Of a stretch of 64,000 bases of DNA, positions 4,075 to 27,453 are shown in pieces. Every line of letters starts with the position of its first letter. Positions within the stretch are counted from its first letter, which is position 1. This DNA comes from Escherichia coli (lineage in GTDB: Bacteria > Pseudomonadota > Gammaproteobacteria > Enterobacterales > Enterobacteriaceae). The stretch lies in NCBI RefSeq assembly GCF_016903815.1, contig NZ_CP069973.1. One strand, written 5' to 3'. The notes under the pieces are model-generated. The model saw only the letters and a list, made by a program, of their open reading frames with translations, was not told where the DNA came from and did not search any database. The translations under genes and the position numbers were made by a program.

Positions 4075-4350
4075 GTGGCTTCCATTTCCATCAGATGTCC
4101 TTCCTGCTCCGCTACTGAAGGCGTGGTGCGTAACGGCAAAAGCACTGCCGGACATCAGCGCTATCTCTGCTCTCATTGCCGTAAAACATGGCAACTACAG
4201 TTCACTTACACCGCCTCTCAGCCCGGTACGCACCAGAAAATCATTGATATGGCCATGAATGGCGTCGGATGTCGCGCCAGTGCACGCATTATGGGCGTTG
4301 GCCTCAACACGGTTTTACGTCACTTAAAAAACTCAGGCCGCAGTCGGTAA
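4075..4350 (+). CDS. insA: IS1 InsA protein
   Basis: 91-aa ORF '[37 protein letters not shown]...' matches remembered IS1 InsA. Confidence 0.9.
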
Positions 4351-4772
4351 CCTCGCGCATACAACCGGGCAGTGATGTGATTGTCTGCGCTGAAATGGAC
4401 GAACAGTGGGGCTACGTCGGTGCTAAATCACGTCAGCGCTGGCTGTTTTACGCGTATGACAGGATACGGAGGACGGTTGTGGCGCACGTCTTCGGTGAAC
4501 GCACTCTGGCCACACTGGAGCGTCTTCTGAGCCTGCTGTCGGCCTTTGAGGTCGTGGTATGGATGACGGATGGCTGGCCGCTGTATGAATCACGCCTGAA
4601 GGGAAAGCTGCACGTTATCAGCAAGCGTTACACTCAGCGCATTGAGCGACATAATCTGAATCTGAGACAACATCTGGCAAGGCTGGGACGGAAGTCACTG
4701 TCGTTCTCAAAATCGGTGGAGCTGCATGACAAGGTCATCGGGCATTATCTGAACATAAAACACTATCAGTAA
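4269..4772 (+). CDS. insB: IS1 InsB (transposase reading frame, normally expressed as InsAB' by -1 frameshift)
   Basis: 167-aa ORF overlapping insA in a different frame, ending '...[12 protein letters not shown]'. Confidence 0.85.
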
Positions 4773-8667: not shown

Positions 8668-9150
8668 ATGAAACTTCAGGTATTACCGTTAAGTCAGGAA
8701 GCCTTTAGTGCTTATGGCGACGTAATCGAAACGCAGCAACGGGATTTTTTCCATATTAACAATGGCCTGGTGGAGCGTTACCACGATTTGGCGCTGGTTG
8801 AGATTCTTGAGCAAGACCGTACGCTTATCAGCATTAACCGCGCGCAACCGGCGAATCTGCCGCTGACCATTCACGAACTCGAACGTCATCCGCTGGGTAC
8901 TCAGGCCTTTATCCCGATGAAAGGTGAAGTGTTTGTGGTGGTCGTGGCGTTAGGTGACGACAAACCAGACCTGTCAACGCTGCGGGCGTTTATCACCAAC
9001 GGTGAACAGGGGGTGAATTACCATCGTAACGTCTGGCATCACCCACTTTTCGCCTGGCAGCGCGTCACCGATTTTCTGACCATCGATCGCGGCGGCAGTG
9101 ACAACTGTGATGTTGAAAGTATTCCTGAACAGGAACTCTGTTTTGCGTGA
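8668..9150 (+). CDS. allA: Ureidoglycolate lyase
   Basis: 160-aa ORF, length and sequence match AllA; synteny. Confidence 0.85.
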
Positions 9151-19381: not shown

Positions 19382-20167
19382 TTAAATCTCTACGTCGCGG
19401 TTGCAATCTTTTGAGTAAATATAACTAAACGCTTCACCACGCCCTACGCCATAACCGGCCTGTAAGGAATAAGCGCCCATAAAGATGTAATCGCCTTTTT
19501 TCACCGGGATCCAGTTATTGTCGAGGTTATAAACCCCCTGACCGGAAAGAATATAGGCACCGTGTTCCTGGACGTGAGTTTCGATATAACCGTGGCTGGC
19601 ACCTGGCGCAAAAGAGAGGATATGCATGTTCATATCAAAACCTAACTCTTTGGGCAGAAAATCCAGCAGAATAACATCGTCCATGCCTTCATAATGAATG
19701 CGTTCGAGTTCGCTGGCATTGCCAGAAACTAGCCACGGCGCATGACCTTCTACCGGAACATAGCGACGCTTATATAAAAAGATTTGGCTGTCTTCGGCCT
19801 GGGCGTTAACAAACGTCATTAAGGAGCCTGGTGGGCAATAAAGATAGCCACCTTCGCTTAAGGCAAATGTTTTATCTTCGGCTTTGGCAGTGATATTTCC
19901 AGAGATCACATACAGGAACGTTTCAATGCCTTCGCCCCCGAAGCCCTGTTGGTTGCCACCGTTTTGATGCAGTGTGACCAGATAATCAACAAAAGAGGCC
20001 CCCAGCTTTGGCGTGGAGAGGATTGTCGCGTCACAATTTTCAAAGCCAGGAATAATATTTTTTACCAGACCATCCGGGGTTAACAGCGCGAAATTACCGT
20101 GTTTAACAATCGCACGGTTAGCCAGTAAATCATCGCGGTAACCGGTGACGTTATTTAAATATCCCAT
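19382..20167 (-). CDS. allE: (S)-ureidoglycine aminohydrolase (cupin)
   Basis: 261-aa ORF; synteny (ylbA position). Confidence 0.8.
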   Translation of the reverse strand: MGYLNNVTGYRDDLLANRAIVKHGNFALLTPDGLVKNIIPGFENCDATILSTPKLGASFVDYLVTLHQNGGNQQGFGGEGIETFLYVISGNITAKAEDKTFALSEGGYLYCPPGSLMTFVNAQAEDSQIFLYKRRYVPVEGHAPWLVSGNASELERIHYEGMDDVILLDFLPKELGFDMNMHILSFAPGASHGYIETHVQEHGAYILSGQGVYNLDNNWIPVKKGDYIFMGAYSLQAGYGVGRGEAFSYIYSKDCNRDVEI

Positions 20168-20177
20168 TTATAACTCC

Positions 20178-21413
20178 TTATTTCTTCCAGGCAAGTTGAT
20201 AAAGCATGAGTGCCAACGTTTTGACCCCTTCGGCAAGGTCGGTAATATTGGTGCGTTCCGCCGGGTTATGGCTGATCCCGTTGATGCTGGGAATGAAAAT
20301 CATGCAGGTCGGCACGCGCGGCGCGAAAATTTGTGCGTCGTGCCCGGCACCACTGTGCATCACCCGGTAATTCAGTTTTTCGCTTTCACACAATTCTGTC
20401 AGGGTGGTGACCAGGTCCTTATTCATCGGCACGGGTTCTTCGTCCATCCATAAATCGATATCAATACCAATGTCCATTTCATCGCAAATCGCCCGCATGT
20501 CGTTTTCTAACTGTTGGGTGAAATCGCGCAGCACGGCAGCATCGGTATGGCGACAATCAATGGTGAACGTGGTTTTACCCGGCACCACATTCACCGTATT
20601 CGGGCGCGGCTCTACTTTGCCAAAGGTCAGAACCAGCGGATCGCCCATCTTTTTCGCTTTTTCGACAGACTGATGGCAAATGCGACTGAAAGCGTAAACC
20701 GTATCACGACGATAACCCATCGGCGTGGTGCCTGCATGGTTTGATTCGCCATTCAGCGTCACCGTATAACGACGCTGCCCGACAATTGCATTCACCACGC
20801 CAATTGACTGCCCATTACTTTCCAGCACACAGCCCTGTTCGATATGCAGTTCGACAAAGGCTTTAATATCCTGACGCGGAGTTAGTGGGGCGTTCGGCAG
20901 AGTAAATCCGCAAGCCTTCATCGCATCGACAAAACTATTTCCTTTGGCATCACAGATATTCCGCACGTCGTCAGGATTCGCCAGCCCAAAGATATTTTTA
21001 CTGCCCCAGAAGACATACGGGAAGCGGCTGCCTTCTTCTTCTGCCATCGCCACCACTTCGACCGTACGTAACGGCGCGCCGTATTGCGTTTTCAACCAGT
21101 CAATTGCCAGCCACGCCGCCAGCGCGCCGAATTGCCCGTCGAGGTTACCGCCGTTAACCACGGTATCGATATGCGAACCGCTCAGAACCACTTCTTGTGG
21201 ATATTCGGTGCCACTCAGGCGACCATATAAATTCCCCACTTCATCGAAACGTGTTTCCAGCCCGCTTGCTGCCATTCTTTTTTTAAATTGCTGCTGAGTT
21301 TCCAGCCATTCCGGCGAATAAAGTAAACGGGTCATCCCACCCGTTGGGTCAGCGCCAAAAGAGGAAAGCCAGGGCAGCGTTTCTTCTATGGCTTGACGAA
21401 AATGTGTAATCAT
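20178..21413 (-). CDS. allC: Allantoate amidohydrolase (M20 peptidase family)
   Basis: 411-aa product from 'MITHFRQAIEETLP...'; synteny. Confidence 0.85.
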   Translation of the reverse strand: MITHFRQAIEETLPWLSSFGADPTGGMTRLLYSPEWLETQQQFKKRMAASGLETRFDEVGNLYGRLSGTEYPQEVVLSGSHIDTVVNGGNLDGQFGALAAWLAIDWLKTQYGAPLRTVEVVAMAEEEGSRFPYVFWGSKNIFGLANPDDVRNICDAKGNSFVDAMKACGFTLPNAPLTPRQDIKAFVELHIEQGCVLESNGQSIGVVNAIVGQRRYTVTLNGESNHAGTTPMGYRRDTVYAFSRICHQSVEKAKKMGDPLVLTFGKVEPRPNTVNVVPGKTTFTIDCRHTDAAVLRDFTQQLENDMRAICDEMDIGIDIDLWMDEEPVPMNKDLVTTLTELCESEKLNYRVMHSGAGHDAQIFAPRVPTCMIFIPSINGISHNPAERTNITDLAEGVKTLALMLYQLAWKK

Positions 21414-21434: not shown

Positions 21435-22484
21435 TTATTGCGCAAAGGGATTTTTCGTTTCGTATGACGTGTTATAAAGCGCGTCGGAAATTAAATACTG
21501 GTAAATATCATCAACAATTTCGATGCCTTCGACGGCGGCTTTGCGTTGTTTAATATCCTGATCCTGTCCGGGATAATAAACCTGGTTAAAACCGGGCGCG
21601 GGGGTTATGGCATTTAATTCGCGCATGGTCTGGCTAAGATGTTGACGGAATAGTTCGCTGGAGGAGAAAAAGTTCGGATTAATAACGATATGTAATTGCC
21701 CCAAATTACGCCCGGCGTGTAAATCGTCATACATCGAACTAACCTGTCGCCCGAACGGTAAGCCGAGTAAGACGCCTGAGAGGACGTCAATCATCATCAT
21801 CAGGCCATACCCTTTCGGCCCGGCGGCGGGGAGCAGAGCATGTACCGCGAACGGATCGGTTGTTGGTGCTCCGTTTTTATCGACCGCCTAGGTATCCGGG
21901 ATAGACATATTACGCGAGCGGGCGTCGAGCACTTTTCCCCATGCCTGTACGGTAGTCGCCATATCAAAGGTAAGGATCTCGTCGCCTTCTCCCGGCGCGG
22001 CAAAGGCCAGTGGGTTAGTACCGTAGTAAATTTCCGCGCCGCCAAACGGCACCACCATTGGATCGGACTGGCACATCGAAATGCCAATTAATCCGGCGCG
22101 GGCTGCCTGCTGCACAAAATAAGAGATTGCGCCGCTGTGACCCATCCGGCTGATACCGACCACCGCAACGCCATTTTGCTGGGCGGTTTTGATGGCATGT
22201 TCCATACCCATTTTCGCCGCGACCTGTCCGGCGGCATTGTCAGCATGTAAAATTGCTGAACATGGCCCGGTTTCTTCAAGACGAAACTCCGGTTCGCGGT
22301 TGGTGCCGCCTTTTGAAATGCGTTCCGCGTAGTATTCCACGCGCACCGCGCCATGAGAGTGGATCCCTCTGGCATCGGCGTAAACCAATACTTCAGCCAC
22401 GGTTGCAGCGTGCTCACGTTTTAACCCAGCCTGGCAGAGTTTATTCTCGATTAGCTGGTGGAGTGTTTCCCGACTGATTTTCAT
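21435..22484 (-). pseudogene. allD: Ureidoglycolate dehydrogenase interrupted by a single in-frame TAG at 21888-21890 (codon 199 of 349)
   Basis: ORFs 21888..22484 (198 aa) and 21435..21800 (121 aa) are in the same frame; the span is exactly 350 codons; sequence around the stop reads '...SIPDT*AVDKNG...'. Confidence 0.85.
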
Positions 22485-22800: not shown

Positions 22801-24468
22801 ATGATCCACGCCTTTATTAAAAAAGGGTGTTTTCAGGATTCGGTCAGTTTAATGATTATTTCACGAAAACTCAGCGAATCAGAAAATGTTGATGATGTTT
22901 CCGTAATGATGGGTACGCCCGCCAATAAAGCGTTATTAGAGACCACAGGTTTCTGGCATGACGATTTTAATAACGCCACGCCGAACGATATTTGCGTGGC
23001 AATTCGTAGCGAAGCGGCGGATGCGGGGATCGCGCAGGCGATTATGCAACAGCTTGAAGAGGCGCTAAAACAACTGGCGCAGGGTTCAGGCAGCAGCCAG
23101 GCGTTGACGCAGGTGCGTCGCTGGGACAGTGCCTGTCAGAAATTACCCGATGCCAGTCTGGCGCTGATTTCAGTGGCTGGCGAGTATGCGGCGGAACTGG
23201 CGAATCAGGCGCTGGATCGCAACCTCAACGTGATGATGTTCTCCGATAACGTCACGCTGGAAGATGAAATCCAGCTCAAAACCCGCGCACGCGATAAAGG
23301 CTTGCTGGTGATGGGGCCGGACTGCGGTACGTCGATGATTGCCGCCACGCCGCTGGCTTTTGCTAACGTGATGCCGGAAGGCAACATTGGCGTCATTGGC
23401 GCTTCCGGTACCGGGATTCAGGAGCTGTGTTCGCAGATTGCGCTGGCAGGTGAGGGAATTACCCACGCGATTGGTCTTGGCGGGCGCGACCTCAGCCGTG
23501 AAGTGGGCGGCATCAGTGCGCTAACGGCGCTGGAAATGCTCAGTGCAGACGAGAAAAGCGAAGTGCTGGCATTTGTTTCAAAACCACCTGCCGAAGCTGT
23601 GCGTCTGAAAATTGTTAATGCCATGAAAGCAACTGGCAAACCGACGGTGGCGCTGTTTTTAGGTTATACCCCGGCGGTAGCCCGCGACGAGAATGTCTGG
23701 TTTGCCTCCTCGCTGGATGAGGCCGCACGCCTGGCTTGCCTGCTTTCACGCGTTACGGCGCGACGTAACGCAATAGCGCCTGTCAGCAGCGGATTTATTT
23801 GCGGTTTGTATACCGGCGGTACGCTGGCCGCTGAAGCGGCGGGATTACTTGCCGGACACCTTGGCGTGGAAGCCGACGATACCCATCAACATGGCATGAT
23901 GCTCGACGCCGACGGACATCAGATCCTCGACCTGGGCGATGATTTTTACACCGTCGGGCGTCCCCATCCGATGATCGACCCGACCTTACGCAACCTGTTA
24001 ATTGCCGATCTCGGCGCTAAACCGCAAGTGCGCGTGTTGCTGCTTGATGTCGTGATTGGCTTCGGTGCGACCGCCGATCCTGCCGCCTCGCTGGTGAGCG
24101 CCTGGCAAAAAGCCTGTGCCGCGCGTTCTGACAGCCAACCGCTGTACGCCATTGCCACGGTGACAGGTACCGAACGTGACCCGCAATGCCGCTCGCAGCA
24201 AATCGCCACGCTGGAAGATGCGGGGATCGCGGTTGTGAGTTCGCTGCCGGAAGCCACCTTGCTGGCGGCAGCGTTAATTCATCCGCTCTCGCCTGCCACA
24301 CAGCAACACACACCGTCATTACTGGAAAACGTCGCCGTGATTAACATCGGATTACGCAGCTTTGCGCTGGAGCTACAAAGCGCCAGCAAACCGGTTGTGC
24401 ATTACCAATGGTCGCCAGTCGCCGGCGGCAATAAAAAACTGGCTCGTTTATTAGAACGTTTGCAATAA
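22801..24468 (+). CDS. fdrA: FdrA protein (acyl-CoA synthetase-like)
   Basis: 555-aa ORF; synteny. Confidence 0.8.
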   Translation: MIHAFIKKGCFQDSVSLMIISRKLSESENVDDVSVMMGTPANKALLETTGFWHDDFNNATPNDICVAIRSEAADAGIAQAIMQQLEEALKQLAQGSGSSQALTQVRRWDSACQKLPDASLALISVAGEYAAELANQALDRNLNVMMFSDNVTLEDEIQLKTRARDKGLLVMGPDCGTSMIAATPLAFANVMPEGNIGVIGASGTGIQELCSQIALAGEGITHAIGLGGRDLSREVGGISALTALEMLSADEKSEVLAFVSKPPAEAVRLKIVNAMKATGKPTVALFLGYTPAVARDENVWFASSLDEAARLACLLSRVTARRNAIAPVSSGFICGLYTGGTLAAEAAGLLAGHLGVEADDTHQHGMMLDADGHQILDLGDDFYTVGRPHPMIDPTLRNLLIADLGAKPQVRVLLLDVVIGFGATADPAASLVSAWQKACAARSDSQPLYAIATVTGTERDPQCRSQQIATLEDAGIAVVSSLPEATLLAAALIHPLSPATQQHTPSLLENVAVINIGLRSFALELQSASKPVVHYQWSPVAGGNKKLARLLERLQ

Positions 24469-24477
24469 GGGGTTTCC

Positions 24478-25737
24478 ATGTTTACATCAGTGGCGCAAGC
24501 CAATGCTGCGGTTATCGAACAAATTCGTCGCGCTCGTCCACACTGGCTGGATGTGCAACCGGCTTCTTCACTTATCAGCGAACTAAACAAGGGCAAAACA
24601 CTGCTTCACGCCGGGCCGCCAATGCGCTGGCAGGAGATGACCGGACCCATGAAAGGGGCGTGCGTGGGCGCATGTCTGTTCGAAGGCTGGGCGAAAGATG
24701 AGGCGCAGGCGCTGGCAATACTGGAGCAGGGGGAAGTGAACTTCATTCCTTGTCACCATGTGAATGCCGTCGGGCCAATGGGCGGCATTACTTCTGCCAG
24801 TATGCCGATGCTGGTGGTCGAGAACGTGACCGACGGCAACCGGGCGTACTGCAACCTCAACGAAGGTATCGGCAAAGTGATGCGTTTTGGCGCTTACGGC
24901 GAAGATGTCCTGACTCGCCATCGCTGGATGCGCGATGTGTTAATGCCAGTATTAAGTGCGGCGCTGGGGCGCATGGAGCGCGGTATCGATCTCACGGCGA
25001 TGATGGCGCAGGGCATTACCATGGGCGATGAGTTTCATCAACGCAATATTGCTTCCTCTGCACTGTTAATGCGTGCGCTGGCCCCACAAATTGCTCGCCT
25101 CGATCATGATAAACAACACATCGCGGAAGTGATGGATTTCCTCAGCGTGACCGATCAGTTCTTCCTTAACCTCGCGATGGCTTACTGCAAGGCGGCGATG
25201 GATGCTGGTGCGATGATCCGTGCAGGCAGCATCGTCACGGCTATGACCCGCAACGGCAATATGTTCGGGATTCGGGTCAGCGGGCTGGGCGAACGCTGGT
25301 TTACTGCGCCTGTAAACACTCCCCAAGGTCTGTTTTTCACCGGCTTCTCGCAGGAGCAGGCGAACCCGGATATGGGCGATAGCGCAATTACCGAAACCTT
25401 TGGTATCGGAGGTGCGGCAATGATCGCAGCGCCTGGCGTAACGCGCTTTGTCGGTGCGGGTGGCATGGAAGCGGCCAGAACCGTTTCTGAAGAGATGGCG
25501 GAAATTTACCTTGAGCGCAATATGCAGTTGCAGATCCCCGGCTGGGATTTCCAGGGCGCGTGCCTGGGACTGGACATTCGTCGCGTGGTAGAAACCGGCA
25601 TTACGCCACTCATCAATACCGGTATCGCCCATAAAGAGGCGGGGATCGGGCAGATTGGCGCAGGCACTGTGCGGGCACCGTTGGCCTGCTTTGAACAGGC
25701 GCTGGAAGCACTGGCTGAAAGCATGGGGATTGGTTGA
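24478..25737 (+). CDS. ylbE: DUF1116 protein YlbE, intact here
   Basis: 419-aa continuous ORF; synteny. Confidence 0.75.
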
Positions 25738-25747
25738 GGAACGCGCA

Positions 25748-26563
25748 ATGACGATCATCCATCCTCTGCTTGCCAGCCGTAGCGCTCCGAATTATCGCCA
25801 GTCCTGGCGGTTAGCGGGCGTGTGGCGGCGGGCGATTAACCTGATGACGGAAAGCGGCGAACTGTTAACGCTGCATCGTCAGGGTAGTGGTTTCGGCCCC
25901 GGAGGATGGGTGCTTCGCCGCGCGCAATTCGATGCGTTATGCGGTGGATTATGCGGCAATGAACGACCACAGGTTGTGGCTCAAGGCATTTGCCTCGGAC
26001 GTTTCACGGTTAAACAGCCACAGCGTTATTGTTTGCTGCGTATTACGCCGCCTGCGCATCCTCAACCGCTTGCAGCGGCATGGATGCAACGCGCGGAGGA
26101 AACCGGGCTTTTCGGGCCGCTGGCGTTGGCGGCAGGCGATCCGCTGCCTGCTGAATTACGCCAGTTTCGTCACTGTTTTCAGGCCGCGCTCAATGGCGTT
26201 AAGACCGACTGGCGGCACTGGCTGGGTAAAGGGCCGGGATTAACGCCGAGTCATGATGACACGCTGACGGGAATGCTGCTGGCAGCCTGGTATTATGGCG
26301 CTTTAGATGCGCGCTCCGGTCGCCCGTTTTTTGCCTGTTCCGACCATCTTCAACTCGTTACCACTGCGGTGAGCGTTAATTATTTACGTTATGCCGCGCA
26401 AGGATATTTCGCCTCGCCACTCCTGCACTTTGTTCATGCTCTGAGTTGCCCGAAACGTACCGCTGTTGCGATTGATTCGCTGCTGGCGCTGGGACATACG
26501 TCAGGGGCAGATACGCTGCTGGGGTTCTGGCTTGGTCAACAATTATTACAAGGAAAACCATGA
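25748..26563 (+). CDS. ylbF: Conserved protein YlbF
   Basis: 271-aa product from '[12 protein letters not shown]'; the longer ORF-track start overlaps ylbE. Confidence 0.7.
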
Positions 26564-27453
26564 AAACACTGGTTGTAGCTCTTGGGGGCAATGCCTTGCT
26601 TCAGCGCGGTGAGGCGCTGACGGCAGAAAATCAATATCGCAATATCGCCAGCGCTGTACCCGCACTGGCGTGCCTGGCCCGTTCTTATCGGCTGGCGATT
26701 GTTCACGGCAACGGGCCACAGGTGGGGCTGTTGGCGTTACAGAATCTGGCGTGGAAAGAGGTAGAACCGTATCCGCTGGATGTGCTGGTGGCGGAAAGCC
26801 AGGGGATGATTGGCTATATGCTGGCGCAGAGCTTGAGCGCACAGCCGCAGATGCCGCCTGTCACGACGGTGCTGACGCGCATTGAGGTTTCGCCTGATGA
26901 TCCGGCGTTTTTGCAGCCAGAGAAGTTTATCGGTCCGGTTTATCAGCCAGAAGAACAAGAGACACTGGAAGCGGCTTACGGCTGGCAGATGAAACGTGAT
27001 GGTAAATATTTGCGCCGGGTGGTAGCGTCTCCGCAACCGCGTAAAATTCTCGACAGCGAAGCCATCGAGTTGTTGCTCAAAGAGGGGCATGTGGTGATTT
27101 GCAGTGGCGGCGGCGGTGTGCCTGTGACGGATGACGGAGCAGGGAGTGAAGCAGTGATTGATAAAGATCTCGCCGCTGCGTTGCTCGCCGAGCAGATTAA
27201 TGCCGATGGGCTGGTGATCCTCACCGATGCTGATGCGGTATATGAAAACTGGGGAACGCCGCAGCAACGTGCCATTCGCCATGCCACACCGGATGAGTTA
27301 GCGCCATTTGCCAAAGCCGATGGTTCGATGGGGCCGAAGGTAATGGCGGTGAGTGGCTATGTCAGAAGCCGTGGCAAACCTGCGTGGATTGGGGCGTTAT
27401 CGCGGATTGAAGAGACGCTGGCGGGCGAAGCGGGGACCTGTATTTCGCTGTAG
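26560..27453 (+). CDS. ybcF: Carbamate kinase-like protein
   Basis: 297-aa ORF with amino-acid kinase fold features; ATGA overlap with ylbF; synteny. Confidence 0.8.

Follow-up and report, generated by a model that had tools for sequence, protein, structure and literature searches.

An amber codon at a former Dcm site in allD of Escherichia coli ST405 and its recurrence in other lineages

The allD locus and its interrupted reading frame

Inspection of the window, i.e., the whole stretch of 64,000 nucleotides of Escherichia coli DNA that was analyzed, revealed an allantoin gene cluster in which allD contains an internal stop codon (Table 1). Translation of the minus strand from 22484 to 21435 gave 350 codons including the normal terminal stop, and the single internal stop was codon 199, in the context ...SIPDT*AVDKNG..., where the plus strand reads cta. 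The first-pass annotation had placed an amber at codon 199 of allD between 21870 and 21905, and translation confirmed it, the TAG being read from 21890 to 21888. The sum of codons given there (198 + 121 + 1 = 349) was wrong and has to be replaced by 198 + 1 + 150 = 349. The 121-aa open reading frame used in that sum is a chance ORF, which begins at the first internal ATG past the allD stop.

The identity of the gene was assessed against K-12. Over 1050 of 1050 nucleotides, allD aligned to b0517 of K-12 with 98.4% identity and zero gaps. Codon 199 is TGG (Trp) in K-12 MG1655, and the sole change within this codon is G to A at gene position 596, corresponding to C to T at position 21889 of the plus strand. 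The earlier proposals that the gene is allD and that a nonsense codon has replaced a sense codon are both borne out by this alignment. On the protein level, F132L, V206A and the stop account for all differences from K-12 AllD, and the best match among solved structures was 4FJS/4FJU (E = 5e-236). Position 199 is occupied by a sense codon in the homologues checked, as had been presumed, with Trp in K-12 and in the Thermus protein 1VBI, and Cys in the Methanocaldococcus protein 2X06.

K-12 AllD (b0517; PDB 4FJU, 1XRH) is an NAD+-dependent (S)-ureidoglycolate dehydrogenase of the Ldh_2 / L-sulfolactate dehydrogenase-like family and is encoded at the same locus, between allC and fdrA. The neighbours of allD in the window follow the K-12 order, with an allD-allC-allE operon divergent from fdrA. 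Judged from the sequence, full-length collinearity together with this synteny identifies the gene as the ortholog of K-12 AllD. In contrast to K-12, the window gene has TAG for TGG at codon 199, and no full-length enzyme is possible. A functional enzyme would be expected to have an uninterrupted frame covering all three domains; the frame is interrupted here, and the gene is therefore classified, on its predicted translation, as a pseudogene. The rest of the cluster was intact, as claimed earlier: 16 of the 16 other genes from allS to allK (ybcF) were full length and had no internal stop.

Table 1. Positions of the features discussed, in the numbering of the window.
Feature	Position	Strand	Description
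allD (ureidoglycolate dehydrogenase) pseudogene	21435..22484	-	349 codons plus terminal stop, one internal amber
Amber codon 199, TAG	21888..21890	-	ancestral TGG (Trp199); mutated base 21889
Former Dcm site	21888..21892	+	now CTAGG, ancestral CCAGG; 21889 is the inner C, the predicted Dcm-methylated position
Translatable 198 codons	21891..22484	-	contain Ser43, His44, Arg48, Tyr52, His116, Ser140, Asp141; residue roles from PMC3527362
Untranslated 3' remnant	21435..21887	-	150 codons plus stop; encodes Met251, Arg259, Asp308 (PMC3527362)
121-aa ORF	21435..21800	-
allA (ureidoglycolate lyase)	8668..9150	+	intact; remaining ureidoglycolate outlet
allE	19382..20167	-	intact; downstream of allD in the same operon (PMC12535856)
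allC	20178..21413	-	intact; downstream of allD in the same operon (PMC12535856)
allF-allG-allH-allK (fdrA, ylbE, ylbF, ybcF)	22801..27453	+	intact oxamate transcarbamylase and carbamate kinase; functions from PMC11326118, PMC12535856
IS1 copy	~4075-4772
argU	40808-40884		tRNA-Arg, tct
nfrB	45724-47961	-	one amber at codon 376, stop 46834-46836
Island between nfrB and cusS	~48160-62000
RHS repeat core protein gene	54112-58941	-	1,609 codons; TAG at codon 740, stop 56722-56724

Distribution of the allele and its fixation in ST405

Complete E. coli genomes (5,426 in total) were searched by megablast, and in 30 of the 30 complete genomes among the matches listed an allD with the TAG was found that was 100% identical to that of the window. 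A 31-mer centred on the TAG, designed such that the variant base lay inside every 28-base seed word, was present in 103 of the 5,426 genomes. The exact 198-aa and 121-aa products of allD were each found on at least 1,000 public contigs with GenBank accessions. A sequencing or assembly error in one record, which the first-pass annotation had named for position 21889 as an event that would overturn its reading, is thereby refuted: the identical base stands in 92-103 complete genomes that were sequenced independently of each other, as well as on at least 1,000 public contigs, no point in favour of an error emerged, and its probability is negligible.

In strain 7/2, which belongs to ST405, PGAP flags the identical allD as a pseudogene ("internal stop"). 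The stop in ST405 is thus already recorded in public annotation, while literature searches combining ST405 with allantoin, and allD with pseudogene, found no paper on the ST405 allele in the collection searched. Neither the existing RefSeq pseudogene annotation nor the recurrence in unrelated lineages had been mentioned in the first-pass annotation. A search of a large protein database with the 198-aa fragment mixed partial proteins from contig ends with true truncations and lacked the main full-length cluster, and was unusable for truncation lengths. Full-length AllD (349 aa) shares its 90%-identity cluster with AllC (411 aa), and the representative of this cluster is of AllC length, which explains the absence of the main AllD cluster from the search. 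The joint cluster is probably a clustering artefact, perhaps derived from a fused allD-allC gene call.

The origin of the window could be assigned by comparison with other strains. Between the window and ST405 strain 7/2, 2 mismatches were found in 25 kb, none in 10.9 kb and one in 31 kb, amounting to about 3 in 64 kb. Identical allD sequences occur in WCHEC96200 (published as ST405, phylogroup D), in WCHEC4533 (analyzed among ST405 genomes), in an O102:H6 strain and in several isolates named "405". The near-identity to 7/2 and the identical allD in ST405 isolates together assign the window to the multidrug-resistant clone ST405. With the TAG and the window-type A615 in one probe, 92 of the 5,426 complete genomes matched, and 117 genomes matched a probe specific to the 5' haplotype of the window type (222, 225 and 228); if the two probe sets are nested, about 25 carriers of the haplotype are still wild type. 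The 92 genomes, which belong to ST405, trace to human, dog, cattle, bird and water sources across several continents.

A single genome, that of EFF60 from swine-manure effluent, contained an exact match to the window allele with TGG instead of TAG, and over 29 kb this genome has 14 mismatches to the window. As this intact allele is one base away, no further decay of allD has taken place since the stop arose. The loss had been called very recent in the first-pass annotation, and the absence of later decay agrees with that wording, but a strain-specific sense of it does not hold, as 92 complete genomes share the stop. The allD stop is fixed across the globally spread ST405; it is recent on an evolutionary scale and extends beyond one strain. 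For ST405 it serves as a stable marker of this multidrug-resistant clone, and on its own it matters little.

The same annotation had left room for a conditional loss, in which a natural suppressor tRNA or leaky termination would let ribosomes pass the amber and AllD would still be made. The window has three internal stops (in allD, nfrB and an RHS gene), and each of them is TAG; this would speak for readthrough, but codon usage and transition bias predict three of three in about 21% of cases. The sole tRNA of the window is argU, and in ST405 strain 7/2 the anticodon of both glnV and glnX is the normal CTG. No CUA anticodon or supE-type suppressor was found among the tRNA genes covered, namely argU in the window and glnV and glnX of 7/2. 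Natural suppressors are generally rare and costly. The three ambers were consequently dismissed as a sign of an amber suppressor, given their chance expectation and the normal glnV and glnX; a conditional loss found no support, and we regard readthrough as highly improbable.

The former Dcm site and recurrent nonsense at codon 199

On the coding strand of the wild-type gene, the codons ACC-TGG create the sequence CCTGG at gene positions 593-597, in which G596 pairs with the inner C of the complementary strand. The two features that deamination at a Dcm site should leave were both observed, i.e., an ancestral CCWGG with a change of its inner C, and the direction C to T (TGG to TAG in the gene). 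CCWGG sites are documented hotspots of G:C to A:T mutation at the methylated base, and very-short-patch repair by Vsr counters mutation at these hotspots (PMC13250602; PMC2715241). Most likely, the stop would have originated from spontaneous deamination of a 5-methylcytosine at 21889 that escaped very-short-patch repair, and the C to T change would thereby have turned Trp199 (TGG) into an amber (TAG). All in all, we consider it likely that the allD amber is a clonally inherited null allele marking E. coli ST405 (phylogroup D) that arose via C to T at a Dcm site.

The same TAG was found on four allD haplotypes. In addition to the ST405 haplotype of the window (92 complete genomes), it occurred on an O157:H7 haplotype (8 complete genomes, 7 cattle isolates and one human), on the haplotype of RM11911 (3 complete genomes) and on that of STEC383 (1 complete genome). 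These four haplotypes mutually differ at 12-18 sites, and position 596 is closely bracketed by private SNPs: STEC383 has them at 585 and 615, O157 at 555 and 615, which places them 11-41 bp upstream and 19 bp downstream. Independent mutation is the more parsimonious explanation, and the TAG would then have arisen at least four times. A single origin followed by spread through homologous recombination might be considered, since the allD haplotypes are mosaic and STEC383 agrees with the window type at positions 36, 210 and 900. The imported tract would, however, be limited to less than about 30 bp in STEC383 (585-615) and to less than 60 bp in O157 (555-615), far below usual tracts; recombinational spread of the TAG was rejected on account of these very short shared tracts, and we hold it to be very unlikely.

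Codon 199 also carries a second nonsense allele, TGG to TGA, which was detected in 8 complete-genome records on one haplotype (among them strains M18, SFE8, MIN6, QA-1986 83, c1-17 and ES7). This haplotype departs from that of RM11911, a TAG carrier, only at positions 596 and 597, and the change falls on the outer, unmethylated C of the Dcm site. The other 5-methylcytosine position of the same site is affected by C594T, a synonymous change present in 48 genomes and on at least two haplotypes among 6 sampled. For comparison, amber alleles of Q18 and Q301, both of which are CCAGG Dcm sites, had no match in the 5,426 complete genomes, and a W182 amber, which served as a non-Dcm control, had no match among complete genomes either. 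Codon 199 thus appears, from the alleles compared, to have become a nonsense codon at least five independent times (four TAG, one TGA), as opposed to zero at the three other candidate sites. The absence of the Q18 and Q301 ambers, together with the TGA at the outer, unmethylated C, implies that codon 199 changed more often than 5-methylcytosine chemistry alone predicts, with counts that are too small (4:0, p ~0.06) to establish a hotspot or selection.

The repeated stops might alternatively result from selection for the loss of AllD as a convergent adaptation in certain pathogenic clones, in which a stop in the middle of the gene would be better tolerated than an early one and expression of allC and allE would be kept. 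The five independent nonsense events at codon 199, the lack of matches at three other nonsense sites (two of them Dcm sites) and the presence of ExPEC ST405 and an O157:H7 sublineage among the carriers would fit such selection, as would the convergent losses in Shigella, where allD is one of the functions listed (PMC2617782). Nevertheless, only 4 of the 23 internal positions at which G:C to A:T creates a stop were probed, selection for loss should yield many different disabling mutations beyond the stops surveyed here, the codon-199 stop is present in only about 2% of genomes, and allFGHK are still intact. Taken together, selection for AllD loss seems rather unlikely to us. Quite unlikely, too, is the broader proposition that unrelated lineages, namely ExPEC ST405, the O157:H7 sublineage, two STEC-like backgrounds and the TGA lineage, would each have switched off the oxamate branch as a selected change, keeping allC and allE.

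Returning to deamination at the Dcm site, the mutation fits the classical pattern of Dcm amber hotspots in context, direction and recurrence, Dcm methylation at this position being predicted. As at the CCAGG sites of lacI, replacement of the inner C by T makes a TAG, and it recurs in several lineages. Unlike the lacI hotspots, the allD case comes from natural populations and not from a mutagenesis assay, and allD has two Dcm-linked Gln codons without ambers as well as a TGA at codon 199 that does not involve 5-methylcytosine. The same base change on four haplotypes would make a clear-cut case of a Dcm-site hotspot in nature. Caution is called for as well, as identical pseudogene alleles across lineages need not share ancestry.

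Expected metabolic consequences and other features of the window

Translation of allD would end after 198 of the 349 residues, leaving the C-terminal 150 residues absent. In AllD, Met251, Arg259 and Asp308 line the substrate and NAD sites, and the dimer interface is formed by helices alpha7/alpha8 (PMC3527362). The truncated protein still has Arg48 and His116; as Met251, Arg259 and Asp308 are missing, it should be inactive, going by its predicted length. As allD heads the allD-allC-allE operon, the stop may also lower the expression of allC and allE through polarity.

AllD oxidizes ureidoglycolate to oxalurate, from which AllFGH and AllK give oxamate, a third NH3 and one ATP (PMC11326118; PMC12535856). 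In K-12, the larger part of the anaerobic allantoin flux runs through this oxamate branch, and in allFGH mutants the flux is diverted to glyoxylate and oxalate; the AllA route yields glyoxylate, oxalate and urea, with 2 NH3 at an ATP cost (PMC11326118; PMC12535856). In ST405, the oxidation of ureidoglycolate to oxalurate would be lost, AllFGH and AllK would be starved of oxalurate, and the flux would be forced through AllA to glyoxylate and urea. ST405 should still release allantoin nitrogen, less efficiently and without oxamate. The predicted metabolic difference of ST405 hence consists of no oxamate from allantoin, a lower yield of nitrogen and ATP, and more glyoxylate, oxalate and urea. The loss resembles that of allantoin genes in host-restricted or invasive enterobacteria (allD in Shigella, pseudogenes among the allantoin (all) genes in some Salmonella lineages), in that one anaerobic allantoin step is inactivated in a pathogenic clone. 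Unlike in those cases, only allD is affected in the ST405 window, while the other 16 genes of the cluster are intact.

Two further genes of the window contain an internal amber. In nfrB, codon 376 is CAG in K-12, in the context ATC-CAG-CTT, which is not a Dcm site, and PGAP notes an "internal stop" for the gene in 7/2. NfrB is a cyclic-di-GMP-activated glycosyltransferase needed for adsorption of phage N4. The RHS repeat core protein gene reads ...GVEW*YRYDERG... across its TAG, and the gene with the codon-740 TAG is likewise flagged "internal stop" in strain 7/2.

Differences in mobile elements were observed as well. Downstream of argU the window continues directly with envY, and the DLP12 cryptic prophage of K-12 is missing; at the argU site, EFF60 has a lambdoid prophage, and an IS5 lies in its sfm fimbrial operon. 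Between nfrB and cusS, a gap of only about 150 bp in K-12, the window holds an island with ISAs1, RHS fragments, a PAAR fragment, a DcrB-related gene and the type VI secretion gene vgrG. At the start of the window, an IS1 copy (according to the annotation of 7/2) immediately follows an RHS element core gene. EFF60 is without this IS1, and its alignment to the window breaks there.
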